Below are positions 23,094-48,222 of a DNA stretch of 64,000 nt, one piece after another (the stretch's first letter is position 1; every line of letters starts with the position of its first letter). A model generated the notes under the pieces. The model saw only the letters and a list, made by a program, of their open reading frames with translations, searched no databases and had not been told where the DNA came from. Source of the DNA: Mesotaenium endlicherianum. Its lineage: Eukaryota. A program made the position numbers and the translations under genes. The stretch spans positions 600,682-664,681 of the forward strand of contig WELA01003597.1 of the NCBI GenBank assembly GCA_009602735.1, written 5' to 3'.

Positions 23094-23596
23094 TGTAGTG
23101 ATTTGAGTTATTATATATTAGTTTGCATATATTTTAATGTTTTCAAATATATTTGGAGTAGTATTGTGTGGAGTCAAGTTTGAATAGGTACTCTAGTAAC
23201 TTGGTTCATGTCCTTTGAACCTTCCAAGGCATTTTCGAAGTTAGAGGAAAGACCTAGAAGAACTCCATGTGGCAAAAGTCAAATGTGCCATTTTTAGGTC
23301 AAAAGGACATGTGTACATTATTCTAGAAAGAGGTGGCAAGTTTTGGGATGTGTTGGGTGCCAACACATCAACATACACTTTCCTAGAAATTACTTATGTA
23401 GCAAGTATATAAACAAGAGCTAGAACATAGAAAGACATTCCAGAATCACTCTTGTACTTGCCAAAATCCAGAAATATATTAACTTTCAAGAAGCCATCTC
23501 TCTTTCAAGAAGCTACCACTTGTGTTCAAAGATCCTTGTCTTGAATAGATAAAGTATTCTGTTTTACTAAGTACTTTATCTATCTGTTTCACTACA
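23094..23596 (+). repeat. 5' LTR (503 bp)
   Basis: 8-bp terminal inverted repeat; about 6 mismatches to 29271-29773 by eye. Confidence 0.97.
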
Positions 23597-23597
23597 G

Positions 23598-23609
23598 TGG
23601 TATCGGAGC
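23598..23609 (+). promoter_or_regulatory. Primer-binding site TGGTATCGGAGC (initiator-Met tRNA type, variant)
   Basis: 1 nt after the LTR end; differs from the common plant TGGTATCAGAGC at one base. Confidence 0.9.
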
Positions 23610-23633
23610 TAGGCACTTTGGTAGCACAAGAAG

Positions 23634-24914
23634 ATGGCCGATCCTCAAGACCAACAGCAAGCTTTCGAAGGAAGCCCTTCCTCTCCAAGACACCCTCCTC
23701 CAGCGCCGATGGGAGAGCCCACTCAAGAAAATCTGCAACAACAAGAAGCACCACAAGGAGGAGCACACCCTCCTCCAGCGTCGATGGGAGAGCCTACTCA
23801 AGGAAATCTCCAACAACAAGAAGCACCACAAGGAGGAGCACCGTCAAATCCCGTGGCAGCCGCTATAGCAAAGTTGACCCCACCACAAGGAGTTCCCGCA
23901 AATGAGTGGGCAGCCTTCCTAATGACCGTCCACAACCAAGTGGGCTTGGCCACCTATGAAGCAACCGTGCAAGCGTCAAGAGAAGCTATGGCTGCCATGG
24001 TTGCCCCTATTGCGAGCAATGCTCAAAATCCAGCCCCGGCTCAAGCGCCTCCACAAGAGCCAACGAGAGCAAGGAAACTCATCAAGCCCGGCAAACCCGA
24101 CACTTTCAACCCCGGGAAAGGTGCCAACCTGAATTTATGGCTCTACCAAGTGGAGACGTACCTCGCATTCCTTGAAGTACCCGAGGAGGACTACGTTCCC
24201 TTTGCCGTTACCTTACTTAGAGGAGCAGCAACATCATGGTGGCGTAACTATCAAGCGGCTATATATCAAGCTATGGCGCACCCCATGCTCGGCCAAGAGC
24301 CCCCACCATCATATGCAAGATGGGCAGATTTTCGTGAGGCCCTCAAGAAGCAATTCATGCCCATCAATGCGGAGAAGATTGCCCGAGGAAAGCTCCACCA
24401 TCTCAAGCAAACGACGTCCGTTCAAGAGTATACATCCAGATTTCACGCCCTCACTCTTGAGATCCCCAACATGTCTCTCGAGGAGAAGATTGACCGCTAC
24501 ATCTTTGGCCTCAAACCCAAGGTGGCAAAGGAAGTGGAGTTACGCGACTTGACGGACTTCTCAAAGATCATTGAAGTGGCCCAAAAGGTGGATACCTTGG
24601 ATTTCAAGCACTCCGTGCCTTCATCTTCACGGGTACCGACGACGCGGGTGTACGCAGCCCCTTCCACATCCGAATCTGGACCCACACCCATGGAAATCGG
24701 AGTTATTAAAAGGGACCCCGCGGCTGCCCGGAAGAGTGGAAGACCCTCCAATGACACTTATGATGCAAGAAACCAGCAAGGAGTGAAAGCAAGACTCTCC
24801 CCGGCTGAAAAAGAAGCTCTCATGACGGCTGGACTATGCTTCTATTGCAAGGAAAAGGGCCATCGTGCACTTTCATGCCCCAAAAAGTTGTCAAAAAACG
24901 GACAGCGCCGGTAG
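23634..24914 (+). CDS. gag: Gag (retrotransposon capsid plus CCHC zinc knuckle), 426 aa
   Basis: [34 protein letters not shown] and [15 protein letters not shown]-terminal 25-aa tandem duplication. Confidence 0.96.
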
Positions 24915-27900
24915 GCCAGGAGCCTACCACCCCAAGACCCACTTCACGAGAAGGCAACACGCCAAGTGAGGTGGAGACCCCCGTTGAAGACGACGTTCCA
25001 GCCCCAATGAGTTTGAGAGGTTACCTTGGAGGAGAGAAGGTCCACATCTTGGTGGATAGCGGAGCTCAAGGCAACTTCATTGCTGCAGATTTTGCCACCA
25101 AGCACGGTATTACTATGCGAACTCTTGACCACGACGAGGAGATTATGATGCCCGATGGATTCTCCTATACTACCCCTTCCAAGAAGACGTACCCCTTGGC
25201 ACTCTCTATCAAGTCCTTCAAGGATAGAGTAGTGTTCTCCCCCATGCAATTGGGCAAGTACGACGTCATCCTAGGGACGCCTTGGTTGACCAAGCACAAC
25301 CCCCAAGTTGATTGGAGGACCGGTACTATCAAGATCAAGAATGACATCACTTCAAGAATCTGTATTTTGCGCGCAATCCAGAATATCCAGACCCAAGACA
25401 TCCAGAAGCCGGCACACGAGATACTATTGTCCGCCCTCCAACTCAAGAGACTTGTGAGGAAGGGACACGAGCTTCTTTTGGCCTTGATCACGCCAAAAGA
25501 CATCAAGAAAGACATCGAGAGTCAAGAAGGCAGCCCCGTTCCCAAGGAGATACAAGAAGTCTTAGAGGACTACAAAGAAGTGTTCTCCCCGGAATTGCCC
25601 AAGGGCCTACCCCCCAAAAGATTCGTAGACCACAAGATAGAGTTGGAGCCCGGAAGCAAGCCCATCTCTCGGCCTACGTTCAAAATGTCATACACGGAGC
25701 TAGACGAAGTCAAGAAGCAAATCAAGGAGCTACTGGAGCATGGCTTCATTCGACCTAGCAAGTCGCCATTTGGAGCCCCGGTGCTATTTGTCAAGAAGAA
25801 AGATGGTACCTTGAGGATGTGTGTGGACTATCGCGCCCTCAACAAGATCACCATCAAGAATCGATACCCGCTGCCGCGCATGGATGAGCTCATGGACCGG
25901 CTGGTTGGAGCCAAGTACTTCACGAAGATTGACTTACGGAGCGGCTACCACCAGATTCGCATCGCAGAACCGGACATAGAGAAGACGGCATTCAGGACAA
26001 GATATGGACATTTTGAGTTCATGGTCCTGCCATTTGGACTCACCAACGCGCCAGCAACTTTCATGACTATGATGAACACCATATTTCAGCCCATGTTGGA
26101 CAGATTTGTGGTGGTATTCATCGATGACATCCTTATCTACAGCAAGACCCTTGAAGAGCATGCGAGACACTTGAAAGAAGTCCTTGAAGTATTGAAGCAA
26201 AACAAGCTATTTGCGAAGGAGTCAAAGTGCGAGTTTGCCAAACAAGAAGTGGAGTTCCTAGGTCTCCACGTGACTGCTGATGGCATCAAGATGGACCCCA
26301 AGAAGACCACGGTGGTGGAGGAATGGCCAACCCCCACGACCAAGAAAGAACTCCAGTCATTCTTGGGATTTGCCAATTGGTACAGAAAATTCATCCAAGG
26401 CTTCTCGCACATAGCAGCCCCCCTGACAGATCTACTCAAGAAGGACAGGCTATATACATGGACCGAGAAAGAGGAAGAGGCATTTCAAGAGTTAAAGCGA
26501 AGATTGACCACATCCCCGGTGCTCACACTCCCAAGTCCAAACCCAGATTGGCCCTTCCACGTCATCACCGATGCATCTTCCTATGCAATAGGAGCAATCC
26601 TGCTTCAAGACCAAGGCAAGGGACTGCAGCCCATCGCCTACGAGTCAAGGAAGCTAAATCCAGCCGAGCAAAATTATACAACCACGGAGCGAGAGGCATT
26701 GGCGATTGTACATGCCTTGAAGGTTTGGCGCTGCTACGTTGAAGGACGCAAAGTACTGGTCACCACGGACCACGAGGCGTTAAAGCACCTCCAAACGCAG
26801 CCGTATCTCTCAAGGAGACAAGCAAGATGGAGCGGATACTTGCAACAATACAACATCACGATTCAGTACCAGCCCGGCAAGACAAACCCGGCTGACCCCC
26901 TCTCAAGACTGCAATTAAATGCAGTGATGGTATCCCTGAAGACAGATCTGGAAGCTCGATTTTCAGCCGCCTATGAAAGAGACCCTTACTACAAGAACGG
27001 AGAAGCAGCCTTGGACCCATGCAAGAAGCAAGAAGGCAATTATTGGGTGAGGCAAGATACGGGCCAGAGATGTGTTCCTAATGACATAGACCTCCGGCTC
27101 TTGCTTCTACGAGAAGCACACGACAACCCTCTTGGAGGACACTTTGGAATCCTAAGGACCACGGGCGTTCTAGCTAGGACTTATTGTTGGCCAGGCATGT
27201 CTAAGCAAGTCAAGGAGTACTGCAGGAGCTGTGACACATGCCAAAGAATCAAGCCATCATCGCAAAAGGCGGGAGGACTCCTCCAACCACTACCAATCCC
27301 CGAAAGACAATGGACGGACATCTCAATGGACCTTATCGTGGACTTGCCCGTGACACCTCGAGGCCATAATGCAATACTCACGGTGGTGGACAGACTTACC
27401 AAGATGGCTCATTTTATTCCCACGACGACTAAGGCTACAGCACCACAACTTGCAAGACTCATCTTTGACAACATCTTCCGACTCCATGGACTACCATCAA
27501 GAATTGTGTCAGATAGAGATCCAAGATTCACAAGCCATTTCTGGAAAAATCTCTTCAAGAACTTGGGTACATCGCTGGATATGTCTACTGCCTACCACCC
27601 ACAATCAGATGGGCAAACCGAGCGTATGAATCGTACCCTAAAGACCTCTCTAAAGGCCTACGTGTCTACCCTCGAGCAAGACTGGGACATGTACTTGACC
27701 CCCCTCGAGTTTGCCTACAACAACACTACGCAGGCCTCTACCCAAGAGTCCCCATTCTTCCTCAACTATGGCTTCCATCCGACCACGCCACTGAGCTTCA
27801 CGGCTGGCCATGATGAAGTACCTGCAGCCACAGATTTTATGGAGACATTAGAAGCAGCCCTTACAGCAGCGAAGAAAGCTCTACAACACGCGCAAGATGC

Positions 27901-28501
27901 TCAAGCAAGAGTGGCGAACAGATCCAGAAGAGAAATTACGTACAGAGTGGGTGACAACGTGTTACTATCATCCAAGAACATTCCCCTGAACAACAGGCCT
28001 GCCGGCAGCAAGTTTTCTCCCAAGTATTTGGGACCCTTCAAGATTATCCAGCAAGTCAACCCCGTTGCTTTCAAGCTAGAACTTCCCCAGACTATGCACA
28101 TCGACCCCGTATTCCACGCTTCCCTCTTCAAGCCATATGTGCAACCCGACAACAAGTTCCCAGGACGTGTGACAACCCCACCAGCCCCAACAATAGTGGA
28201 TGATCATTTGGAGTACGAAGTGGAAGACATAGTGGCTATGAGAAATTTCAGGAGACAGCAGCAATACTTGATCAAGTGGAAAGGATATCCAGATTCGGAG
28301 AATAGTTGGGTGGCGGCGCACTACCTTGACAAAGTTCAGAGAAAGTTGAAGCGCTTCCATGCCGCCAACCCCCATCTTGGACCAGCCCCAAGTCTCTCTA
28401 CTAGAAGCCCGAAGACTTCAGGGAGGCAGCCTGCCACCATCAAGAAGCAGCAGAAGACCCCTTGGAGGCAGCCTGCAAGAACAAGAAAGAGGAAAAATTG
28501 A
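24836..28501 (+). CDS. pol: Pol: protease-RT-RNase H-integrase-chromodomain; intact open frame, probably made as Gag-Pol by frameshift
   Basis: LVDSGA, LPFGL...FIDD, TDAS, HHCC zinc finger, DDE core, YLGPF and the chromodomain YEVEDI...YLIKWKGY...NSW. Confidence 0.97.
24893..24928 (+). promoter_or_regulatory. Candidate -1 ribosomal frameshift signal: A AAA AAC plus downstream hairpin
   Basis: Heptamer 24893-24899 is in the gag frame and pol is in the -1 frame; stem GGTAGGC-cagga-GCCTACC at 24910-24928. Confidence 0.75.
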
Positions 28502-29270
28502 CATTAGACACTCTTCTCTTCTCGCAGTTTCTGGACAGAAAACTAAAACTGCTACTGGTAATAGGTCTCTGCATAATAAATTCTGAAAATTTACCTGGCT
28601 GTAGTCCATGAGTAGCCGGTCATTTAGAGTCCAAGTTTGCTCAATTTGGAGCACTGGTGAGAGAGATATGATGCTCTAAGTAGAAGGGGGTCAGGCTGCT
28701 GGCATTGTTAGGACAGAATATGCCTTCTGACATTGTGCCCTCCCCTGAACTTGGAATGCTCTGAAACTCAAGACTCTGGTAGAACATCTTACAGCGCCCA
28801 GTTTGAGACTTAGTTTGCAGAATTTGGAGAAGTATAGAAGGACTTATGATTTTCAGAAGTTTCTGCACAGATTTGGAGGAGTGCCTACTCTCTCAGCTCT
28901 CAACGACAGTCCAGAAGTTAGAATGCTCTCAAATTTGGTGACCCAGTAGAGTTCTTTGACGCGGTCCGTCTGGCACCCAAACTTTTAGATTTGAAGCAGT
29001 TCTATGGCCGCTATGAATTTTTGAATTTGTGGCAGATTCTGGGCCAACTTGTACAATTTCCTTTATCATTAAGGAGTAGGCTAGCCAATAAGGTCACACC
29101 ACCTACGACCTTGCCTAGTCTACCTTACATGTGTCGCACCTGACTTGGCGCCTTTGACTAGTCCTCTTCACATGTGTGGCATCTGACTTGAAACTGTTGA
29201 CTAGTTTGCTCCACATGTGTAAGACCTGGCTTGACGCGCCGAGACGTCGCTTTTTCTATCGGGGGGGTGA

Positions 29271-29773
29271 TGTAGTGATTTGAGTTATTATATATTAGTT
29301 TGCATATATTTTAATGTTTTCAAATATATTTGGAGTAGTATTGTGTGGAGTCAAGTGTGAATAGGTACTCTAGTAACTTGGTTCATGTCCTTTGAACCTT
29401 CCAAGGCATTTTCGAAGTTAGAGGAAAGACCTAGAAGAACTCCATGTGGCAAAAGTCAAATGTGCCATTTTTAGGTCAAAAGGACATGTGTACATTATTC
29501 TAGAAAGAGGTGGCAAATTTTGGGATGTGTTGGGTGCCAACACATCAACATACACTGTCCTAGAAATTACTTATGTAACAAGTATATATACAAGAGCTAG
29601 AACATAGAAAGACATTCGAGAATCACTCTTGTACTTGCCAAAATCCAGAAATATATTAACTTTCAAGAAGCCATCTCTCTTTCAAGAAGCTACCACTTGT
29701 GTTCAAAGATCCTTGTCTTGAATAGATAAAGTATTCTGTTTTACTAAGTACTTTATCTATCTGTTTCACTACA
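29271..29773 (+). repeat. Second LTR (503 bp)
   Basis: Preceded by the PPT and followed by a second PBS instead of the TSD. Confidence 0.95.
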
Positions 29774-30345
29774 GTGGTATCGGAGCTAGGCACTTTGGTA
29801 GCACAAGAAGATGGCCGATCCTCAAGACCAACAGCAAGCTTTCGAAGGAAGCCCTTCCTCTCCAAGACACCCTCCTCCAGCGCCGATGGGAGAGCCCACT
29901 CAAGAAAATCTGCAACAACAAGAAGCACCACAAGGAGGAGCACACCCTCCTCCAGCGTCGATGGGAGAGCCTACTCAAGGAAATCTCCAACAACAAGAAG
30001 CACCACAAGGAGGAGCACCGTCAAATCCCGTGGCAGCCGCTATAGCAAAGTTGACCCCACCACAAGGAGTTCCCGCAAATGAGTGGGCAGCCTTCCTAAT
30101 GACCGTCCACAACCAAGTGGGCTTGGCCACCTATGAAGCAACCGTGCAAGCGTCAAGAGAAGCTATGGCTGCCATGGTTGCCCCTATTGCGAGCAATGCT
30201 CAAAATCCAGCCCCGGCTCAAGCGCCTCCACAAGAGCCAACGAGAGCAAGGAAACTCATCAAGCCCGGCAAACCCGACACTTTCAACCCCGGGAAAGGTG
30301 CCAACCTGAATTTCACTAAGTACTTTATCAATCTGTTTCACTACA
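29774..30345 (+). other. Duplicated PBS and 5' gag (about 170 codons) fused through TTT microhomology to the last ~35 nt of an LTR
   Basis: 29774-30313 matches 23597-24136; it is followed by ...CACTAAGTACTTTATCAATCTGTTTCACTACA and the TSD. Confidence 0.9.
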
Positions 30346-31470: not shown

Positions 31471-31722
31471 CCATACTCGCATACTCTTATATCGCACCTT
31501 TTTCTGGCTTCTTATTATTTGAGTGCATGTATCTTAAAGAAGGCCTTTGTTTGGTCTACAATACTCTGAGTTTATATGTTATGCTAGGATGTTAATTATC
31601 ATGCCCAGCCCCACTCTCCTTGTCAGTGCGCCTAGAGGAACCCCTTCCCGCCTACTCTTTATGCATTCTCCCTCTTCATTCGCACTTCTCCTTGCTGTCA
31701 GCAACTGTCAGACAAAATGGTG

Positions 31723-32443
31723 TGTAATAAATAAGTATATTAGTTGATATGATATTCATTTAAATATAATAGTTAATTAAGTTCAGCCTGCTCAACTCTA
31801 GTTAATAATCAGTCTGCCGGACTTTATATTTAATATCAGTTTAATGACTCGGCCCAAAGCAGCAGGCTGAAGTCAACTTAAGTCAGCTTGCTGACACATT
31901 CTTTGACAGCCAGCTGACTTCCGTACTTGGTAGCAGTGAACTGCCTCGATATGCATCTAAGTGTGGTATGCTAGATGAATCGCCAAATGACATCCCTATG
32001 ATGGATGGCGATTCGGGATGATGGGAGATGGCGGTGGATTTGGTTAACCGAGGTCCTACCAACGTGGTTAACTCCCGGGTAGGCGGTGCCATCGCACTGA
32101 CCGTTGAACAGTAAACTCATTCCATGTACATATGCTAGGCATTACTCTCGAGTTCGGCATTTGGAAACAAGGCCAACTCTCTTGTACAGCTTACTAAGAG
32201 CGATCTGAATCCAAGGCGAGAAGCCATTGATACGCACTGTCTTTTAACCTTGCTTATGTATGAGTTTACTGATTTGCATTATTGATGCTAGTTTACTCGC
32301 ATTTGACTTACGAGTTTTATTCACTGCTAGTGTGTTGTCCTTTGCCGTTAAACCAAGTAACGGAAAATACCATAAAGATTACTTGCTGATATAAATATCT
32401 TCATTAATTGTTAATTGCCTATTTGGTAAGTCGATTCATTTCA
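31723..32443 (+). repeat. 5' LTR (721 bp)
   Basis: Roughly 25-30 mismatches to the 3' LTR by eye. Confidence 0.95.
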
Positions 32444-32477
32444 GTGGTATCGGAGCAGTTATCACAGTCTTCTTTGT

Positions 32478-33169
32478 ATGGTAAGGACAAGGTCTCAAAC
32501 TAGCAACTCCCGAGGCATGGAGAACCAGGATAAGGAGAATGTCGAAAACCAGGCGGAAAGCCATGTAGCGGGAAACCTTACCTATTCTGAAGCAGTAGCA
32601 GATACTGCAGCTAGGGAGGCTGCAGATGAGGCAACTGCTATTGCCGTTGTCGCAGCACAGCAAGCTCAGGAGGAGAGAGCCAGGCTAGAAGCTGAACAAG
32701 TAGTAAAGGCCGCTGAAGATACAGAAAGGAGGGAAAGACAGCCAGCTGACGAGCGCACTGTCGAGGAACTCATGGCATCAAGGACCAATGTTCTGAACCC
32801 ACCTCCTGCTGTACAACTCAATGTACCCCTAGGTCAAATACGTGACCGACTGAATGCGGCAGGAATTGCTGCTGCAGGAGCAAGAGGGATTGTTGAGGAC
32901 ACTACTCAGCGAGTAGAGGTCAATACTGCTGCTGCATTTGCTAATCTACCACCCCAGACTGTAGACTTGGGAGCATTGTTCGTTCGGATGCAGTCGCAAA
33001 TGGCGACCATGTATCAGTCCCAACAAGAGGACAAAAGAATCATAATGTCCCTACAGCGGGACAGAGACCAACTGGGGTCTCAAACCACTAGTGGTGGTGG
33101 CCGAGGGCCTAGTAAGCCCAAGCCGAAACCTCCCCAGGAATATGATCCTGAGGGAAACAGAAAATATTA
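32478..33169 (+). CDS. gag: Gag N-terminal part, running into an assembly gap
   Basis: Starts MVRTRS just after the PBS; KPKPPQEYD capsid-start motif before the N run. Confidence 0.75.
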
Positions 33170-33793
33170 NNNNNNNNNNNNNNNNNNNNNNNNNNNNNNN
33201 NNNNNNNNNNNNNNNNNNNNNNNNNNNNNNNNNNNNNNNNNNNNNNNNNNNNNNNNNNNNNNNNNNNNNNNNNNNNNNNNNNNNNNNNNNNNNNNNNNNN
33301 NNNNNNNNNNNNNNNNNNNNNNNNNNNNNNNNNNNNNNNNNNNNNNNNNNNNNNNNNNNNNNNNNNNNNNNNNNNNNNNNNNNNNNNNNNNNNNNNNNNN
33401 NNNNNNNNNNNNNNNNNNNNNNNNNNNNNNNNNNNNNNNNNNNNNNNNNNNNNNNNNNNNNNNNNNNNNNNNNNNNNNNNNNNNNNNNNNNNNNNNNNNN
33501 NNNNNNNNNNNNNNNNNNNNNNNNNNNNNNNNNNNNNNNNNNNNNNNNNNNNNNNNNNNNNNNNNNNNNNNNNNNNNNNNNNNNNNNNNNNNNNNNNNNN
33601 NNNNNNNNNNNNNNNNNNNNNNNNNNNNNNNNNNNNNNNNNNNNNNNNNNNNNNNNNNNNNNNNNNNNNNNNNNNNNNNNNNNNNNNNNNNNNNNNNNNN
33701 NNNNNNNNNNNNNNNNNNNNNNNNNNNNNNNNNNNNNNNNNNNNNNNNNNNNNNNNNNNNNNNNNNNNNNNNNNNNNNNNNNNNNNNNNNNNN
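33170..33793. other. Assembly gap (N run)
   Basis: 624 N. Confidence 1.
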
Positions 33794-36700
33794 AAGACAG
33801 TCCCCCCTATCCTACTGCATTGCATGATTGCAGGTAGGAAGGTGAGGGCATTTGTTGACGGAGGGGCGTCGCATACTTTTATCCACAAGGACTTACTTAA
33901 GCGGCTAAGGCTGCCTACTGTCACCCAAGGGAATAGAAAAAATATTCCTTGGAGATGCCTCAAGTATCCCGAGAGGAGTTATAACCAAGCCTATTGAGGT
34001 CCAGTTAGGTTCTGGCATTGCAGTTCTAACTAAAACGCTTACATTTGAGGTACTCAACACTGGCTTTTATGATCTCGTGCTAGGCAGGTCCTGGCTTAAT
34101 AGACATCAAGCTGAAGTGTGTTGGAGCAGAGGTACAGTTAAAGTGAGAGGAGTTCGTCAAAAGCTGGAACCGGAAGGAAGACAGAATGTTCTGTCTGCTG
34201 CTAAGAGAGGTACCTTCTCAACCTGAAGAAGTGGTTGAGGAAAAGGTGAGCCCTCCGGAGCACCCTACTACTGCAAAAATTGTTGCTCAGTACACGGATG
34301 TATTTAATATGCCTCCAGGACTACCCCCTAAGAGGGAAGTAGATCATGATTGATTTATTACCTGGTAGTCAACCACCCTGGCAACGCACGTATGGCTTGT
34401 CTTATGTGGAGAGCGAAGAGTTGAAAACACAGATTGCAGAGCTTGAGGAAAATGGTTATATTTCTCCCAGTAAATCACCGTACGGCGCACCCATCCTATT
34501 TGTTAAGAAAAAGGATGGCAGTATGCGGATGTGTGTGGATTACAGAGTCCTGAATAGAATTACAGTAAAGAACAAGTATGCTTTACCGAAAATTGAGGAC
34601 TTGCTTGATACCCTGTCTGGTGCTAAGGTGTTCACTAAGATAGATCTCAAGAGTGGTTATCATCAAATCAGAATTGCTGAGGGGGATGAACACAAGACTG
34701 CTTTCCGCACACGTTATGGACACTATGAGTTCAACGTGATGCCCTTTGGACTGACTAATGCTCTCGCTACCTTCATGGGTGCTATGAGTGACATTTTCAG
34801 ACCATATTTGGATAAGTTTGTGCAAGTTTTCCTGGATGATAGTTTAATTTTCTCTAAAGATGAAGCTCAGCACACTGAACACTCAAAAATAGTCCTGGAC
34901 AATTTGCGGAAAAATCACTTATATGCTAAAATGAGCAAGTGTGATTTCTTTAAGGAAAGTATTGAATTCTTAGGCCACGTTGTCAGTAAAGAGGGCATCA
35001 GTGTGGATCCTAAGAAAGTCCAGACCATAAGGGACTTGCCAGTACCACAGTCTGTCTCTGAAGTTAGATCCTTCCTCGGGTTGGCTAACTACTTTAGGAA
35101 ATTTATTGAGAATTATTCCACAAAGGCCAGTAAACTGACTGACCTTACTAAGAAAGACATCGGGTACGTGTGGGGGGAAGAGCAGCGGGCTGCCTTCCAG
35201 ACTCTTAAAGATGCCCTTTGTTCTGCCCCAGTGCTAGCCGTGTATGACCCCAGCAAACCGGTGCAGGTGGTTACTGATGCCTCTGATTTTGCCATGGGTG
35301 CTATTTTGTTGCAGCCTGCTGACAAAACCACAAAGGATGGTAAGGTACGGCAGGAGTGGCATCCTGTGTTGCATGAGTATGAAATTTTATCCAGCGGAGA
35401 TTAATTACTCAGTGCATGATAAAGAGCTGCTAGCTATCATTCATGTACTCAAACAGTGGAGAGCATACTTACATGGTAAAGCTTTTAAGGTGATTACAGA
35501 TCATCTAGCTCTGACCCACTTTCAGAAGAAGTCCAAGCTGTCGAGGAGGGAGAACCGCTGGAGCCAGATGCTGGAGCAGTTCCAAGTCCAGATCGACTAC
35601 AAACCAGGGAAGTTGAATCTTGCTGATGCACTCTCTAGAAGACCTGACTTGCAAGAAAGGATCTTTAGTCAGCATGCTGTAGATAAAGTCTTGTGTGCAC
35701 TCACTTCACTAAAGGTGAAAAAGTCCTTCCTTGACCAACTTAGGAAAGCCTACCTTTCTAAACCCTAAACCCTAAACCCTAAACATTTGAGCCCAGCCCC
35801 ACTACTGGAGTGTGTCGTGCTACTGCACTCGGGTATAAGCTCAAGGGAGGGGTCTGGGTGAATGAAACCACTTCAGGCAGGTTGAAGCTGGTCATTCCTA
35901 ACGACTTGGAAATAAGGTCTCTCTTACTGAGTCAAGCTCATGACAGTCTCCTGGGTGGACATTTGGGGCAGGCCAAAACTGTTGGCAAACTGGCAAAACA
36001 TTATCATTGGGAGGGGTTACCCCGGGAGGTCTTGAAATATGTCAAGTCCTGTGACCAGTGTTAGAGAAATAAGTCTCGGCACACACCACCCGGAGGTCTT
36101 TTGCAACCGCTACNTTTGCAGCCGCTGCCCATCCCAGCTGGACGCTGGGAAACTATCTCCATGGACTGGGTGGTCTCACTACCAAGAACTGCCAATGGGC
36201 ATGATTCAGTACTGGTAGTCGTGGATAAACTGACAAAAATGGTCAATTTTATCCCCACAACTGTCAAAGTGACTGCAATCGAAACAGCGAGACAGTTCTA
36301 CAACCATGTAGTATGCCAACATGGGCTCCCTTCTAATATCATCTCAGACAGAGACTCAAAATTCACCTCTAAGTTCTGGAGAGCTTTAATGGGGTTAATG
36401 GGAGTCAAACAGCTGCTCAGCACAGCAAACCACCCTCAGACTGATGGGCAGACTGAAAGAACTAACCGAGTTCTGCAGGAGGTGCTGAGAGCATATATTA
36501 ACCAAAAACGAGATAATTGGGATGACCTGTTGCCTCAAATTCAGTTTGCGGTCAACAGTGCGGTGCACGCGTCAACGGGCAAGACTCCTTTTGAACTCAG
36601 CCTGGGTAGAGTCCCTAAGTCTCGTTTAGATGTACTGGGGGAGTCTTTAACTTGCCCTGAAGGGATTGACAACCGGGTCTCCCTCCAGTTAACTCAGGAG

Positions 36701-37257
36701 TTTGCTGCACCCTGTCAGAAGTCCAACAAAACCTGCACAACGCCCAAGAAAACCAACAAAAATACGCTAATCAACACCGTCGGGAACTGACATTTTCCAA
36801 GGGCGATTTAGTCAAACTGCATTCTCAGCACCTGTACCTCCCTGGTGTGGTCAAGAAAAAGCTTGGCCCTGTCTGGGTCGGTCCATATTTGGTGGTACGT
36901 CGTGTCGGTCAGAATGCTTACAAACTGAACATGTCAGCTGACTACAAGGGTCACCGGTCTTTAATGTCTCCTTCCTGGAACTATACATCAAAGGTGATAC
37001 ACTGTTCACAGGTCGGTTACTTGTCCAACCGGGATCGGTCCCCGCTGTCCGGGACGGCGACCCTGAGGAATATTGAGGTCGATGAGATTTTAGACGCTCG
37101 CTCGGTCCGTCGATCGTCTAAATATGTCATGAAGTACCTCATCCGATGGAAGGATCACGATGCCTCTGGGGACACTTGGGAATTTAAAGACCAGCTGACC
37201 AATGCCAAAGGGGCGTTGAAACGGTTCCACCTTCGGGCGGCTGGGGCACCGCCCTAA
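33794..37257 (+). pseudogene. pol: pol (protease, RT, RNase H, integrase, chromodomain) with frameshifts and stops
   Basis: FVDGGASH, MPFGL...FLDD, TDAS, HDSLLGGH...CDQC, ISDRDSKF, WVGPY and IEVDEIL...YLIRWK...DTWE. Confidence 0.93.
35758..35784 (+). repeat. Interstitial plant-type telomeric repeat, about 4 units of CCCTAAA
   Basis: CTAAACCCTAAACCCTAAACCCTAAAC inside pol. Confidence 0.92.
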
Positions 37258-37549
37258 CTGTCCCTTCAGTAGCCATGGGAAGGTGATAGGAGGTCTTGCC
37301 TCCACATAGTTGGAGGGGGTTGTGACAGTTAGTGACAGTTGTGACAGGCAGCCCACCTTTAAATTTAAGTTGGAGGGAGTGGTATTCTCTGATCACCATA
37401 TTACACACTCAACCTGCGCTCACACTAACTTGCTCTCTAACTCAATTTTCCCTTATATTCACTCACACCATGTATTCCACACTAGGAATTCTCCCGATCG
37501 CGTTCCTCTTCATCAAGAGCACTCAATAGCGGCAAAATGATTGAGCAGG

Positions 37550-39211
37550 ATGACTCAGAAGTCGGAACTCAAGAGGAAGAGAAGGGCGGAAGAGGCACAT
37601 GCAGAATACTTGCAATTCCGTGGAGACATCGAATCATCTTCCATCACCGCTCGGGAATCACAACGACTCCAACAACAGCGGGAGGCACAGAAGAAGAAGG
37701 AGGAGGAGGAACAGGCCAGACTGAGGCAGGAAGAAATGGACGGAAAAGTTGCAGAGGAGGCCAAGAAAGCAGAGGAGGAGAGGCAAGTTGAGGAGAAGCA
37801 AAAGCAGCAGGCTGAAGAAGACGAACAGAGGAGAATTAGCAGCTACCGCTACACAGTGCTGGGCAAGGGCTTTGATCTACTGGAGGAGGCCTTCAAGTAT
37901 GCCCAGAGAAGTCGCAGTGAGTCGCAGAAGGAAATCCTCCAGAAGGAAGGGGAGACATCCGAAAACTTTGACAAGTATAAAGAGGTCAGCACAGGGCTCC
38001 TCCTCTACCACGATTACGCCAGGATGGTAGGATACACAATTGGAGAGGCCAAGGCAATGGCCCAGGTGAACGAAGCAGGAACTGTCTTGATTCCTGGTAT
38101 CTAGGGGGCAGATAGGGTCATCAGGATGATCCCCATGGACGCGGACAGCTTCAAGGACTCAACACCCCATAACAGGTTCAAGCCCATGTACAACGAGGTG
38201 GAGAGGAGGAGCTGGGAATTCGTGGCCAGGGAAACCAGTCAGTTAGACTTTGCAGGGCACTGGTACCCTTGTACTCTTAAAAGGACCAACCCTGCCTTCT
38301 TCCAAAAGCCCACCGATTGGCGGTGGATGACCATCATCATGAGGGACCAGCAGAATGACAGGGCGACGGATGAGGATTTCCTGACAGACCTAAAGGGGAA
38401 CATAGTATTGCCCCCTCACATTGCGGCTTGGGACCCAAGATTGGATGGAGTCAGAGACTGCATGAGCCAGGAGATGCAGGGGGACAGAAGCAGGGCCCGA
38501 GAGTCATTCTCAAAAGGGAAGCACGCTTATACCAAATGGGCAAGTAAGCAGGGGGAAAAGGACCTCTATGCGGTCCGGACTCAGCAACTCCCACCAGCAC
38601 CCAAAAGGGGAAGGTCAGTAGGATATTCTTTTTCTCGGGAAGAGCTGGAGCAGCTGATAGAAGAGACCCCAGAAGTCTCAGAGGAACCCGGGGACGGAGA
38701 GGAGGAGGAGTCAGAGGAAGACGAGGAGGAAGGCAAGGAGGAGGACACTAGCCCCGCCGTGATCCTGACGCCTGCCACATCCCCTATAAGGAAGAAGACG
38801 GGGTTGGCCATGCAGCAACTCGCTGAAGTGGAGGATATCACTTGGCTGGGGACTGCCAGAGGACAGACCCCATCTCCAGGCAAGGAGACCCAGTCAGACA
38901 GGGCAGACAGGAGGGCTGCTCGGGAGATAGCCCGAGGCCTGCCAGCATCTCTTTCGCAGAGAGGGCATGTACCCTTGGCTCATGTCATGCAACATCCTTT
39001 TGGGATGCCGGTATACGTACCTGTCAGTTTGAGGGCTGCCCAGGAGAAGGCTGCCTCCCTCCAGACTGTGCAGGAGGAAACAGCCCAGTTACTGCGTTCT
39101 CCGCGGGGTCCTTACACGGAACCTCCCTCTCTGACAGGCTTCAGAAGACCCCAAGACAGGAAGAGGTCTGGCTCCCCTGAGTATAGAGCCTCAGGGACAT
39201 CTCCCTCCTAA
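37550..39211 (+). CDS. Extra sense ORF (ORF3) of about 553 codons, interrupted by one TAG (38102-38104); unknown function
   Basis: ORFs 37541-38104 and 38126-39211 share one frame, and the region lies between pol and the PPT. Confidence 0.8.
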
Positions 39212-39296
39212 TGGCAGTAGGATGGGGCCGGAAGGGACAGCACGCTGTTATTAGTGTTAGTGTTGTCGAGGCGACAACATGATAAGTTGGAGGGAT

Positions 39297-40017
39297 TGTA
39301 ATGAATCAGTATATTAGTTGATATGATACTCATTTAAATATAATAGTCAATTAAGTTCAGCCTGCTGAACTCTAGTTAATAATCAGTCTGCCGAACTTTA
39401 TACTTAATATCAGATTAATGACTCGGCCCAAAGCAGCACGCTGAAGTCAACTTAAGTCAGCTTGCTGACATATTCTTTGACAGCCAGCTGACTTCCGTAC
39501 TTGGTAGCAGTGAACTGCCTCGATATGCATCTAAGTGTGGTATGCTAGATGAATCGCCAAATGACATCCCTATGATGGATGGCGATTCGGGATGATGGGA
39601 GATGGCGGTGGATTTGGTTAACCGAGGTCCTACCAACGTGGTTAACTCCCGGGTAGGGGGTGCCATCGCACTGACCGTTGAACAGTAAACTCATTCCATG
39701 TACATATACTAGGCATTACTCTCAAGTTCGGCATTCGGAAACGAGGCCAACTCTCTTGTACAGCTTATTGAGAGCGATCTGAATCCAAGGCGAGAAGCCA
39801 TTGATACGCACTGTCTTCTAACCTTGCTTATGTATGAGTTTACTGATTTGCATTATTGATGCTAGTTTACTCGCATTTGACTTACGAGTTTTATTCACTG
39901 CTAGTGTGTTGTCCTTTGCCGTTAAACTAGTTAACAAAAAATACCATAAAGATTACTTGTTGATATAAAGATCTTTATTAATTGTTAATCGCCTATTTGG
40001 TAAGTCGATTCATTTCA
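39297..40017 (+). repeat. 3' LTR (721 bp)
   Basis: TGTAATGAATC...GATTCATTTCA, followed by the TSD. Confidence 0.95.
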
Positions 40018-40800
40018 TGGTGTCCATTTTGTTTCTCCTACCCTTTGCGTTCATTCTGCTTGAGAACTGCCCCCTTTCACCCCCCCCCCCTTGTGTGTCT
40101 CACTCACTTAGCCCCCAGTCCTCTTTGTTCTTGCCTGTTTCTAATATTTTGTTTATCTTTTTTTATGCTATTCACTCACAATATGCTCTCACCTATGTGT
40201 GTGTAACTCTTCCTGCCATGCTCACTTTGTCCCCTGCCGTTCACCATGCCCTTTACTCTCAAGCCTACGCTTTCTCTCATTGTTCTTCTTTTGTTGTATG
40301 TGCATCTCTGGCCTTACATTAATGCCGATTCGTCCATCTTCTCTCACATCTTGTCTCTCGTTGCATGTTCCTCCCTTGCTCACCTTGCCTTCATCGCTGT
40401 TCACCGTGCCCTTTTCCCTTCCATTGCCCTCGCAAATGCTTTTTTTTGGCCAGTTGTTTTCCTATGTGCCTCTCTTGCTACTCTATCGGCTGATTCTTTG
40501 TTGATGATTTGCATTTTCTTGTATGTACCCTGCATGTGTTTGTGCCTGACGCCTTTCCCCCGATTCAGGCGTACATATTTTTCTGTCCCTGCCCGTGCTA
40601 TGCTCCGCCTCTCTCCTTTCCCCTTCTCACTCTTGCCTTAGCCCTTGTCCTCTTTCCTGCAATTCCAGCCATGGCCATTGCCTTTGCTTAGTGCTTTGTT
40701 TGTTGTTGGAACTTCCTGTTCCATCTTGCTTGGTTGCTGTCACGCTATCTAATCAAATAGTCCCCCTTTGAAGAGTGTGTTGCCATACGAATTTGATCAA

Positions 40801-41848
40801 ATGCAGGGTGGACGGGCTATGTCACCAGACTCGCGGGATTTTTTGGACATACTCCTCTCTCGAACTGGGTCCCGGCAGAGAGAGCTGTCGAGGGGATTGT
40901 CCTTGGGGGAAGATGAGGAGGGGCCAAAGAAACCCATTCGCCTCATGCCTTATCAAGGGTCTCTCGTTGTACTTCTATGTACTTCCATGTGCCAGGAAGG
41001 GATACTCACTGCTGATGAGGTTCGTGTAACTTACCGCCCTTTCGTAAGTATCGCGCATGCACCCTGTACATGCACAACCTTGTGTTAAAGTCCACCATGC
41101 ATGGTTGCATTATATCTTTGGAGGTGCAATCCGTCTTTTTCTTTCCCTGATTTTCCTGCAACAGGTAATACTTGTAAGAGAAAAAGGTGTTTTTGAAGAT
41201 CCGTATGCTATCCGGGTTGATAACTCAAATGGCTCAACCGTTGGCTATGTGCCTCGGGAAGTGAGCAAGCATCTCTCGCCGCTCATTGACACGCCAGGTT
41301 GGGTAAGGATGTTTGGCACCATTGCGAGGTGGCGAGAAGAAGCACCTCAGGTATGGTGGCCTTTTGTTTGCTCCCCAACCTTGTCTCTCATGAATAGTAT
41401 TATTCTTACCACATGCCAAGGAATGATTGCATGGTGGCCACTGTTTGAAAGTTTATGATCGGGTGTGTGTCAGGCAGAGGGCTGGAGAGGGCGGGGCAAC
41501 ATACCGTGGGTCATAAGCTACCTGCATGCCTCGTGCACTCGTGGTTCGGAATATGCTAATGCAGGTTGCCTTTTTCCTGCATGGTGTGTTTGTGTGCATG
41601 TATGTGCTCTATTGCAGCTCCGTTGCATATTCAACCTTCACTTTCCCAAGCAATACGAATCATACGTAAAAGACCGACTTGATGAAGGAAGTCTGGTCAT
41701 GATTCATGTGAAGAGGTTGAAGAACACGTCGGTTGAGGACACCTACATGAGTGGTGTTTCGGCACCCTACAATGTGACATGCTCCCTTCAACAACCACAC
41801 ACACCCCTTCCACAACTGAAAGATATTGGCCGCGTGAAAAAAGTATGA
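40801..41848 (+). CDS. HIRAN-domain protein, spliced (approx. exons 40801-41019, 41165-41350, from 41618)
   Basis: VILVREKGVFEDPYAIRVDNSNGSTVGYVPREVSKHLSPLID fits the HIRAN pattern L.RE..N..D..AI.V....G..VGY(V/I)PR.....L.PL.D; canonical AG/GT exon borders. Confidence 0.75.
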
Positions 41849-43759: not shown

Positions 43760-46700
43760 CAGGGTTACGCCGTACGCCGTATTGGCCAACCCTCGTATGC
43801 TCAATTAAGCGTACTGAGACGGTTCGCTCGTACTAAGCGAACTGAAGCAAAAAAGTTTTAGGAAAAACACGTGCGCGCCGCCCACGGGCCCGTCCGACAT
43901 CCGTATTGTCCACCATTTTTGGCTTCGGTGTCTTACCTTTAAAAATTTTGTCGATCAAAATCGATCAACAAAAAGCTTGACTTGTTCTTGCAACTTTTTG
44001 CAGGAACGGCAGCAAACTTCTCGGGGGCCGGTTGATACCTTCAATGCACCTCTTTCATTAGCATCAAGCGTCAAGTAAAGAAGAGTAGGAGGTAACGTTT
44101 TTTAGGGTAAGCTATAGAAACGTTTATAGTTCCAATCGAAGCGACTTTTGAAATCTGCCTGACCTTAGGAGACTAGAGAAGTTGTTGCGATCCATTTTTT
44201 AGACAAAAAAAGCCCCACGGATTCTGAAAAGTGGTTGCCTTTGTCTCTCAACTCTCAGAATTCTCAGCGGTGTTTTTTTTCCGTGCATACCTCTGGAGTC
44301 GCATCAGTTCTTCCAGTAGTGCATGGCAACCATGGGCTTAGCAGAGGAGGGCGCCTCCTTCTTCTTGTTGTTGGGTTTTGGGAGACAGCACCCCTCATTG
44401 CACTTGCACCAGCACCAGCAACTGCGACAGCTATGCCAGCAACTGCTCTGCCGGTAGCTGTTGATGCTGCAGCAGTCACGCCTGCCGGTGCTTTTCTTGA
44501 GCTTGCTGCTGACTGTACAACACCCCCAGCTGTGACAAGAGAGCCCACTTCCCCTGTTGCCGGAAAATAGAGGGCCTCCCGGGTGAAAGAGGCAGCTAGA
44601 GTGGCTATGAGGGAGGTAGCTCTGCCAGCTGCAGCCTGTCTCCTGCCGATGGTTTGAGCTCTGACACTTGTCCCACCTGTGCCATGATTAGCAGAACCCC
44701 CTCCTTTATGTATCTGGAGCACATTGAATATATTTCCCTGACATGTGGGAGAAAGCCTAAGTTTGGAACTTGAGGGAAGGGAAAAAGAGGGTGGGATGAA
44801 GGGGAAGTGGGGTAGCTATAGCACGCCTACATCCCTTTCCTTTTGAATTATATCTGCTTTAAGAAGCATATGCAGGAGCAGCTGATCCTCAATCGTATGC
44901 GTAAACTCATGCCACAGGGGACTGGTTGTTTCCACAATCTCATCATTGACAAACAATATCTGTTCTGTTCCACAAGGTCTAGGAAGTGGGGGGTTTGGAT
45001 CAGGGACAGGGTGTGAGCATTTTGGGGCTCACCCGGGTGCACCTCATGCTCACATGCAGCCACAGCCAGGTATTCCAGCTGGGCCAATCAGTGATATGCT
45101 CGATGAAGCGGGCTCAGGGTTCATCAGAAGTGGACTGGGAGCTAATGGAGAGAGGCTTTTTGGCAGCAGCAGAGACTATGCTCAGTCAAATGCAAGTGTA
45201 TTTCTACTGCAAGTAACTCATGTCCCTGAGAGATAACGTCAAGTTTTGGTACATTATTTCACTCAGTTTAGTTATTCTCCTTAGTTTTGGACATGCAAAC
45301 TTATGTGTGACCAGATGACCACATACTTCTCCTCACAAGACATTCCTTACTACTTCGAAGTTGTTGGCTCTTACATGCAAGACAAGCTAAAAGTGATTCT
45401 CTGTCCCTTTCTACACAAGGTTTGCTCCATACGACCCCGTTGGTGATGATCTACTCATGTCCTCAGGACACTTGTCATGATGCTGTCTGCAGCTTGATTT
45501 TCTGGTGCTTTAGGTGCCAGGCCCCCTGACGCTGCCTTGAAGCTGGCAACCCCCTGCATCTTGCATCTGCATTGGTGCAACTGGTGCACCCGGTCAGGGA
45601 AGTCCAACTTCAGTCACTACCAAGTTGCGTGTTTCCTGCCTTCAACTGAGTTGAGCTGGACAAATTTCAAGTAGACTTTTGTTGCAATTTTAGAAAGCCA
45701 AGTATGTGGAGATTGCAAGACTTCCTGGGATGGTGGTGAAGGGTCACTGGACGCGAATAGCAGAGCAAAGTAGCAAGAGGTCTCACGTACAAGCCCCCAA
45801 AGCATGACATCAACGCGCCAGGTCTGTACAACCCTATCATGCCATTTACCACCTACGTTGTTGTGGGGGGGCTCGCCTGGACAAGAAGCGAGCTTGCACC
45901 TCCCACCCCTCATTCGCCATTACTTACCCACACCATACTTTGTTGCTTTGCTGGCGACTCCAGCCATGTAATCTGCTTGTTTGCTTGCATGTTTCACTGA
46001 GGAACATGTATACACATACTCACATGCCTGTCTATCTGTGGGCGCAAATGTGCATGTAATAGTAGTTAGCTAAGGTCCATTGCCGAACCCCAAGGGCCCT
46101 GTCCCTTTCCTCTGGTAGCTTCTTTTTTATTTATTTTGCTACGTAGGCTAACCCCTCCCATCACGTCTGCTGTGCTTTCTATTGACACCCGTACTTTATG
46201 CAAGGGGGGGCAACAGTAGTGTGCATCAGGCCCTAATCCGGGCATGGTCTTGAGTGCAAAACTATGTGTGGGGACTCATACCTCTAACAAAGTAGAGGTA
46301 GCAATACTAGCTTCTAGCAATGTGACACACACGCACAACACGGAGGAACTTAGGGCTCCTCAATTTGAGTGCAAGGTGAAACCGGCCCCCCCATCTACCC
46401 CAAACTTTCCCAAGCTTCCCTCAGCTTAACGTGCATACCTCTGCAAGCCAAAGAGGTGGCAGGCTGGCGGGCCGGCATGCAGATAGGCAGGATGCTTAGT
46501 CCCCGATTCCCCTCTTCCTCCCCTTGCAAGTCCGTTACCCCGGCCCCTTCCTGTGCCCGCTGGCCCTCATGTGTGCCTACACCTTCCGGGCGACGCGCTG
46601 GGCGTGCTTCAGGTTTACGCCACGGTGGTGAACTCGCGCTTCATCACGGGGCTCATTGGCTGGGCCCTGGAGGTGGTGCTCCTACACTTCATCCTGAACT

Positions 46701-48222
46701 CGCTGGGCAGCGGCGACACGCCCCTCATAGACCTCATCGCGTACGCCGGCTACGTCATTGTGGGCGTCACAACCGCCCTGCTCAGCTGGCTCGTCTGGTG
46801 CCACTCCTACTATGTTATTGTGGCCTGGACGAGGTACGCGCCTCCCTCCCTCCAGACAACTGTCCCGCTCCTTAATGTCTTGTTTTGTCCCAAGAGAGGG
46901 GTTGGGGGGAAGGCGACAGGGAATGTGGGAGAGAAATGATGGGCTGGAGTTCTTTTGAGTGCTGAATGACTTAAGCAATGCAATTTGGCAAGCATGGTGG
47001 TGCGAGAAAGGGTTTGCACAGGGCCACATCATTAGCACCTAGCATTGGGTGAGAACGCTTTGCAAGGGTACTCAATTCTTGCTGTGTGTGTGCAGGATGC
47101 TTATTAAAGCCTGCTTCATCTCCCCCCTTCTTTTTTAATTTGCTTGTCTGCAGCTATTGCATGGCGGCGTTTCTTGTGAAGACCATGAAGAGGGTGCAAT
47201 TTGCAGGGGCAAGGTAATATGATCGTGAAGCAAGCCGGCATCGATACCTGTTCCTCCTCATGAGCGTAGCACAGTTTTCTTGTCTTGTGGTTAGGCCGCT
47301 TAGGGAAGTGATGTAAGTAGTCACTTTGTGACGTTTGAGTGGAGCTGATTTCACACGCAGGCAGTGAAGTTTGTACATAAATATACGAGAATGAAATTGC
47401 AGTTTCTACGTCATTGGCCTCTTTTTGTTTTGAAGTTCTGAATATAGAAAAGAGTGAATGCCTTAGGATACTAAAACTTGCGAGTGTCTTGTGAGGAGTA
47501 GTCTTTTGAAGGTAACCAAGAAATGCTGTGAAATATGCCATCATATTATTCATAAAACTAATACCTTAATTCAAAGCTAGTAAACGTGTAGGACAAAAAC
47601 GAAAAAAATTGTCACAAGCAATCACAAGTTCTTAAAAGCCATCCACCAAAACTAGGGGTAGGAATAATAAGTACATGTATTGTAACCTGTGAGATTGTTG
47701 CGCACTACCTTAATAGATGCTTTGAGCCCAAGCAAATGAGGCATTAAAAAGTGGCAAATATGACAAGTCTTAAAATTTACTAATATGAGCATCACTTTTT
47801 TGTAAATTAGAATTGCCTATGGATGCATCATCTCCTGCAGGCGTAGTGGTCAGTCGCCGTATTTAAAGTTTGCGGACTACTCACTGTGGTTATAGTTTGC
47901 TACGTAGTGAGTTCATATTCTGCTACTAGCAACCGCTAGCTCAAGTTTTCTGCAATTTTTATCAAAAAAAATTCCTCGGCATATTTTTCTCAATTTTGTT
48001 TTGCTTGGTGGAAAAAGTTTTGTTCCTACCCGGCTTACTTCAAAAAGTACGATTGTTCTTTCACGCGTGCGACCGTCCCGTTCACGTTGGAACTTAACGT
48101 CGGGACGTTGACAATAGCACGTACTAAGCGTACTAAGCGTACAAAGCCATTTTTTTACACAACGAATTTAGCGAACTAGCGTACTTCGCGTACTAAGCGT
48201 ACTAGCGTACGATGTAACCTTG
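43760..48222 (+). mobile_element. Non-autonomous hAT (Pack-type) element carrying host DNA; 8-bp TSD CGAGCAGC
   Basis: TIRs CAGGGTTACGCCGTACGC and, as reverse complement, CAAGGTTACATCGTACGC; CGTACTAAGCG-type subterminal repeats; CGAGCAGC at 43752-43759 and 48223-48230. Confidence 0.9.
44976..47311 (+). pseudogene. YIF1: YIF1 (Yip1-interacting factor) pseudogene; 5 exons (~44976-45191, 45315-45419, 45742-~45888, 46613-46833, 47154-~47311)
   Basis: GSGFIRSGLGANGERLFGSS, YYFEV...KLKVILCPFLHK, GHWTRI...YKPPKHDINAPGLY, LGSGDTPLIDLIAYAGY and FLVKTMKRV; frameshifts in exons 3 and 4 and a premature TAA in exon 5. Confidence 0.92.

Follow-up and report, generated by a model that had tools for sequence, protein, structure and literature searches.

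An extra open reading frame with a middle part under purifying selection follows the chromodomain of a Ty3/gypsy retrotransposon in Mesotaenium endlicherianum

A chromodomain Ty3/gypsy element of 8.3 kb carries, between its chromodomain and its polypurine tract (PPT), an extra sense ORF of 553 codons that is very likely a selected accessory gene of the element family. The ORF lies inside the LTRs, is open in other copies and has shared variants that are mostly synonymous, which argues for a protein-coding gene of the family. Its tested middle part is kept by purifying selection. The element was found in a window of 64,000 nucleotides of Mesotaenium endlicherianum (contig WELA01003597.1, positions 600,682 to 664,681 of the forward strand), to which all coordinates refer. 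Its features are listed here.

31718..31722, no strand: 5' target site duplication, TGGTG
31723..32443, + strand: 5' LTR, 721 bp, TG...CA
32425..32431, + strand: candidate splice-donor-like site G/GTAAGT at the LTR end; second candidate at 32480
32445..32456, + strand: primer binding site (PBS) starting with TGG, after the 5' LTR
32478..33169, + strand: start of gag, assigned by position; the rest lies in the N gap 33170-33793
33794..37257, + strand: pol (protease motif, RT, RNase H, integrase, SH3, chromodomain), its frame broken by indels and stops
37066..37257, + strand: chromodomain (PF00385, E 3e-7)
37258..37549, + strand: spacer, 292 nt, holding a candidate splice acceptor and, at 37308 and 37368, two additional PPT-like copies
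37550..39211, + strand: extra sense ORF, 553 codons, with one stop (38102-38104) private to the window copy
37550..37909, + strand: KRKRR basic cluster (residues 8-12, candidate nuclear signal) and what looks like a long charged single helix
38040..38640, + strand: aromatic-rich middle, the sole stretch tested for selection
38600..39208, + strand: acidic tract, then an S/P/G-rich tail; 9 of the 10 SP/TP sites and more basic clusters lie here
39212..39296, + strand: tail of 85 nt that contains a hairpin (z -2.2) as well as the working PPT (39284-39296)
39297..40017, + strand: 3' LTR, 721 bp
40018..40022, no strand: 3' target site duplication, TGGTG

The element has the makings of a chromovirus: protease, RT, RNase H and integrase follow in this order inside LTRs, a chromodomain stands at the integrase C-terminus, and a PBS, a PPT and a 5-bp target site duplication are present. 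The two LTRs of 721 bp differ by 27 substitutions (K2P 3.9%) and are flanked by TGGTG on both sides, which bears out the initial annotation in placing the ORF within a single element. RT, RNase H, SH3 and chromodomain were matched in Pfam; the start of gag gave no Pfam match. The PBS is of what we take to be the initiator-tRNA-Met type. The chromodomain also matches CDY-like chromodomains (E 1e-6). Sites 1 and 2 of its cage are aromatic, site 1 being read in the frame that precedes a frameshift, and site 3 is His. A short run of (CCCTAAA)n, presumably the plant-type telomere repeat, interrupts pol at 35760-35783 and looks like a repair insertion; a contig from run X9 is without 16 bases there. 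This run of repeats and the YIF1 exon at 46487-46939 point to a green plant or alga as host.

A second chromovirus occupies 23094-30300 of the window, with an open gag (429 aa), an open pol (1230 aa) and a full aromatic cage. Its 3' spacer of 770 nt has no ORF over 73 codons. Behind its 3' LTR come a PBS and the beginning of a further gag, an arrangement like that of tandem copies; the 3' part of a further copy lies at about 1-2200. The integrase cores of the second chromovirus and the ORF-bearing element are 48% identical. The window also holds host exons at 41048-41455 (HIRAN, E 2e-11) and 46487-46939 (YIF1, E 1e-4), and a higher-order tandem array at 51077-52764, built of 34-nt units in 210-nt blocks and open on both strands for more than 360 codons. 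The ORF at 52649-54309 we take to be a hAT-type transposase that includes a BED finger; 57201-60330 on the minus strand is presumably another transposase-like gene.

The extra ORF runs from the ATG at 37550 to the TAA at 39209-39211, with a single TAG at codon 185 (38102-38104). A frame with at most one stop did not arise in any of 2000 simulated sequences at each of Markov orders 1-3. The initial report of some 553 codons in one frame stands. The start is uncertain, there being an out-of-frame ATG 13 nt upstream and one X9 contig with about 30 additional bases at 37537. The stop is private to the window copy, since its position has another base in 98.6% of the X1 depth and also in X6 and in the main X5 contig; the part after it has 368 codons. 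Comparison with other copies revealed several indels in pol of the window copy, confirming the damage that had been noted there. The contrast drawn at the outset between an intact ORF and a broken pol was likewise observed, but by itself it is a weak argument: that all 7 indels lie in pol has a P of 0.065 when only the ORF is compared and of 0.011 when the LTRs are included.

Contigs covered the ORF in five of five contig runs (X1, X5, X6, X9 and X13) with five organism labels from five studies, although the labels may hide one species and X1 may be the source of the window. Part of 36700-39300 was present in 20 of 24 runs, from seven studies, among the matches listed. The 601 bases tested for selection carry 1732 X1 contigs, which indicates that many copies carry the ORF, and a single X5 contig spans this stretch with 18 substitutions. 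At 39061 one X9 contig carries 6 extra bases that keep the frame. Over the ORF, contig depth was about a third of that over pol in X1 and a quarter in X9, with the fall near 37290. This hints at many copies without the gene, or with a much-changed one, contig depth being no measure of copy number.

The selection test covered 38040-38640 (601 of 1659 bases), where the variants are linked and hence not independent. Forty of 58 variant rows were used; the row of the stop was dropped, and the remaining 39 were split by their share in X1. We infer that variants common to a fraction of the copies arose mostly in active ancestors. Among these shared variants, 21 of 27 were synonymous, all 21 at third positions, against an expected synonymous fraction of 0.21-0.29 for transition weights of 1-10 (P 4e-10 to 2e-7; 1e-7 at weight 6), and pN/pS was 0.08-0.12. 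Variants private to the window copy were synonymous in 4 of 12 cases, matching the expectation for changes after insertion, and the two classes differed (Fisher P 0.012). In the worst case, with the 18 other rows all shared and non-synonymous, P was still 0.005. Four alternative frames gave 2, 3, 2 and 6 synonymous variants of 27. The antisense frame with the same wobble position gave 19 of 27; all antisense frames contain 14-19 stops. Absence or neutral decay of the ORF in other copies, which the initial annotation had named as evidence against its proposal, did not occur over 38040-38640. The proposal itself, an accessory gene borne by the family, is upheld by the five contig runs together with the synonymous share of the common variants.

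The deduced protein has the three-part composition first described for it: E, K, R and Q make up 61% of residues 1-100, aromatic residues 11% of residues 101-350, and D and E 31% of residues 351-420. A coiled coil had been proposed for the N-terminus and was rejected. Within residues 34-100, opposite charges occur at i+3 and i+4 above shuffles (P about 0.002), as in a single helix, large hydrophobic residues amount to 9%, and a search for a heptad register found none. This stretch looks like a charged single α-helix, and the N-terminus was modelled as one helix over residues 3-120 (pLDDT 76-94 in the first 90). The single-sequence model of the aromatic middle reached a pLDDT of 35. Hydropathy over 19 residues peaked at 1.04, so there is no membrane stretch, in line with the earlier statement that the protein has no evident signal peptide or transmembrane helix and is not env-like. 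The protein has five basic clusters, KRKRR at residues 8-12 and four others, and 2 cysteines in 553 residues. An S/P/G-rich tail follows the acidic tract and holds 9 of the 10 SP/TP sites. Judged by motif, the nuclear signal and the phosphosites are candidates.

Searches with the 368-residue part covered 157 candidates of 202-644 aa and 5 shorter ones and yielded no relative at E 0.001; metagenome contigs, viral contigs and phages likewise contained none. Its first 175 residues had no Atlas match, and its best match among PDB sequences had an E of 0.5. The ORF protein matched no family in Pfam or PHROGs; in Pfam it matched none of the domains listed for eORFs (PMC6317226). For the N-terminal 184 residues, the search comprised Pfam, PHROGs, the window and 80 metagenome loci. 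A full HMMER scan of 1.84 billion representatives returned one match (P0144, E 9e-6), a SNF2-type helicase of 1739 aa whose N-terminal part has about ten repeats. This match sums six stretches, the best of which scores 33.5 bits over 52 residues, and it was rejected as a repeat artefact. A fold search on the model of the aromatic middle gave nothing below E 0.001 and is uninformative because the model is poor.

ORFs in this position were also sought in metagenome integrase loci. Of 80 such loci, 61 have a chromodomain and 30 have at least 1500 bases after pol; a sense ORF of 200 codons follows pol in 7 of these 30. Nine metagenome ORFs behind chromodomains were gags (three recognised by Pfam and two others by similarity) or unrelated, and none resembles the ORF protein. 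Sense ORFs without a recognised family lie behind chromodomains in L008 (3905-5838, directly preceding a gag), L019 (2375-3058) and L032 (3537-4283).

The candidate splice acceptor in the spacer ends at 37485 and has branch-like motifs nearby; a pyrimidine run of this kind occurs at 4 of 228 YAG sites. Donor-like candidates are those at 32425 and 32480. Two poly(A) RNA runs, 6% and 12% of which were read, placed 250 and 351 reads on the element, most of them 90-95% similar to it, with few over 37542-38303 and zero over 38304-39290. RNA from these runs gave no splice junction among 15 of 157 joints. Reads on the integrase and chromodomain (36018-37541) were mostly opposite in orientation to reads at the LTR start, which suggests antisense RNA over this stretch if the libraries were stranded.

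How might such a protein serve the element? We propose that the ORF is a third protein-coding gene of this chromodomain LTR retrotransposon family and, tentatively and at somewhat less than an even chance, that its product is a nuclear accessory regulator promoting the element's own expression. The message for the protein would be a subgenomic RNA, perhaps one in which the donor at the LTR end is joined to the acceptor at 37485, and the basic N-terminal signal of the protein would direct nuclear import. The charged helix may act as a rigid spacer and the aromatic middle as a folded binding domain, and the acidic, SP/TP-rich tail may contact host chromatin or transcription factors. A soluble nuclear protein of this kind would help the family's own copies to stay expressed; acting in trans, it could profit copies without the gene. 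The searches above offered no relative or fold as a biochemical clue to this nuclear role, and the sparse RNA reads and lower contig depth over the ORF also tell against it. A bolder version, unlikely but not far-fetched, supposes a chromovirus lineage of green plants that branched early and possesses a protein of its own for counter-silencing or RNA export, of undescribed fold, produced from spliced RNA and shared in trans with a majority of copies that have lost the gene. Such a protein would do for a retrotransposon what VANC or Rev does for its carrier, alongside a chromodomain that is aimed at silenced chromatin.

A rather unlikely alternative is an RNA-handling factor like Rev or CERV, which would be translated from spliced RNA, bind the unspliced genomic RNA and license its nuclear export. 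Between them, the candidate donor and acceptor would pose the retention problem to which such proteins are the answer (PMC10309623), and the Arg-rich clusters, the hairpin ahead of the PPT and a 10-bp complement linking the module ends are consistent with it. Against it stand the lack of a splice junction among the 15 of 157 joints, the lack of homology and, with 2 cysteines in 553 residues, the lack of a counterpart of the CERV cysteine loop. It is improbable that the protein is instead a particle or integration cofactor, whose long helix and folded core would associate with Gag or integrase and, along with the chromodomain, guide import or the choice of target. The ORF does adjoin a chromodomain with His at the third cage site in the window copy, and extra ORFs may shape insertion sites, as suggested for sunflower (PMC11728184). 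However, such binding is unsupported by any test, and the second chromovirus of the window, whose pol is open, lacks such a gene.

The surroundings of the ORF bear on how the element acquired it. The extra PPT-like copies at 37308 and 37368 lie 50 and 110 nt past the pol stop. The module ends (37258-37276 and 39215-39240) have the 10-bp complement and a short direct repeat in common, and an imperfect inverted repeat flanks the module. We infer that the module was gained by recombination or by a shifted LTR boundary. No target duplication was seen at the inverted repeat, and a nested DNA transposon was rejected. Contig joints linking both module ends at the short direct repeat were absent among 15 of 157 joints. 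The module ends, if joined, would make one small hairpin behind pol.

Addition by recombination or boundary shift, to which the extra PPT-like copies and the inverted and direct repeats point, would also suit a passenger useless to the element, be it part of a captured host gene, an element nested in this one or a tandem copy's gag. This is very improbable and largely refuted: variants common to copies are under purifying selection, the ORF has no introns, and no host relative was found among the 1.84 billion representatives. As to gag, the ORF protein has neither capsid domain nor zinc knuckle, and a profile built from 19 Gag sequences gave it -0.6 bits versus 116 for the gag of the neighbouring chromovirus. 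A tandem-copy gag was rejected on this score, which matters because the metagenome ORFs behind chromodomains were often gags. With repeat ends lacking a target duplication and no host relative found, we saw no sign of the nested insertion or recent host capture that the initial annotation had allowed for. Least probable of all is an env-like or cell-to-cell movement protein, which would fit the env position and the candidate splice acceptor but not a protein with no signal or membrane stretch, no Pfam match and no viral fold match (the fold search being made on a poor model).

Whether the extra ORFs of plant LTR retrotransposons have a function is a question posed by the REXdb survey (PMC6317226). 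A many-copy family offers direct evidence of selection on an extra-ORF protein. Coexisting copies with and without the gene, if true, would allow expression, methylation and insertion sites to be compared in a natural setting, and a folded domain for which 1.84 billion representatives contain no relative may represent a new fold that binds chromatin or RNA. Surprise is tempered by a layout that has been described before. What makes function testable is the protein, the evidence of selection and the possibility that gene-bearing and gene-less copies coexist.

The nearest RT cores are 64-72% identical to that of the element and mostly unnamed. In RT trees without named references or an outgroup, no starred group contains the element. 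Its RT lies outside the Asteraceae-containing clade in both trees, and the AU test does not reject joining (p 0.067); the RT matches in that clade we take to be Tekay. Tcn1 elements are self-priming in 83% of cases and use tRNA-Met in 5% (PMC6317226); self-priming without a tRNA PBS does not apply here, as a TGG-starting PBS is present. The aromatic cage is found in 54-59% of Chlamyvir and Galadriel elements, and zero extra ORFs are listed for Chlamyvir, Tcn1, Galadriel, Reina and CRM in a table of the same survey. The chromodomain of our element resembles those of clades without extra ORFs in that table.

Sense 3' extra ORFs occur in 18% of 782 Tekay elements (REXdb, Neumann et al. 2019, PMC6317226, Additional file 5), and an 'add. 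ORF' of unknown function is drawn in the full-length figure of fungal chromodomain Gypsy elements (Novikova et al. 2010, PMC2864245). The initial opinion that an extra ORF is atypical for chromoviruses is thus not supported. The present ORF corresponds to eORF-3'F as defined in REXdb, having at least 250 codons, in sense, downstream of and separate from the polyprotein (292-nt spacer), and over 38040-38640 it is kept in copies under purifying selection, as a functional eORF-3'F should be. It shares with the eORF-3'F of plant Ty3/gypsy elements, Tekay included, its sense orientation, its length of more than 250 codons, its place after pol and before the 3' LTR, and also its orphan status; eORFs are mostly orphan, forming 314 groups with a CDD match for 21.4% of the proteins (PMC6317226). 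Its carrier is not placed in Tekay and has a chromodomain of the YEV...W type. The likeness to the 'add. ORF', from fungal hosts, comes from the figure legend only.

Tekay elements of sunflower and grasses also have a 5' additional ORF of about 400 aa with a nuclear signal, few helices and long disorder, conserved within the family (PMC11728184). Both ORFs are borne by chromoviruses, but the Tekay one precedes gag whereas ours follows pol, the comparison being by description only. Bongo3, a Beta vulgaris chromovirus, has an additional PPT just after the chromodomain besides that of the 3' LTR (PMC3605345). This extra PPT is single and overlaps the pol stop, and the available text mentions no extra ORF; the window element has two, both past the stop. 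The further literature compared was PMC9289625. No published description of the family was found by title or start of abstract in a search that mostly left subscription papers outside. Functional models, without homology, are CERV of the C. elegans element Cer1 (PMC10309623) and VANC of VANDAL DNA transposons (PMC13547354), which are nuclear and promote expression of their own element; GENE23 of Grande is also nuclear (PMC7264820). Like the ORF protein, CERV and VANC are accessory proteins that are not membrane-bound and combine folded domains with a helical part. They differ from it in that CERV has exons in common with gag as well as a cysteine loop, and VANC comes from DNA transposons. The layout is already known; the orphan protein and the lineage that carries it are new.
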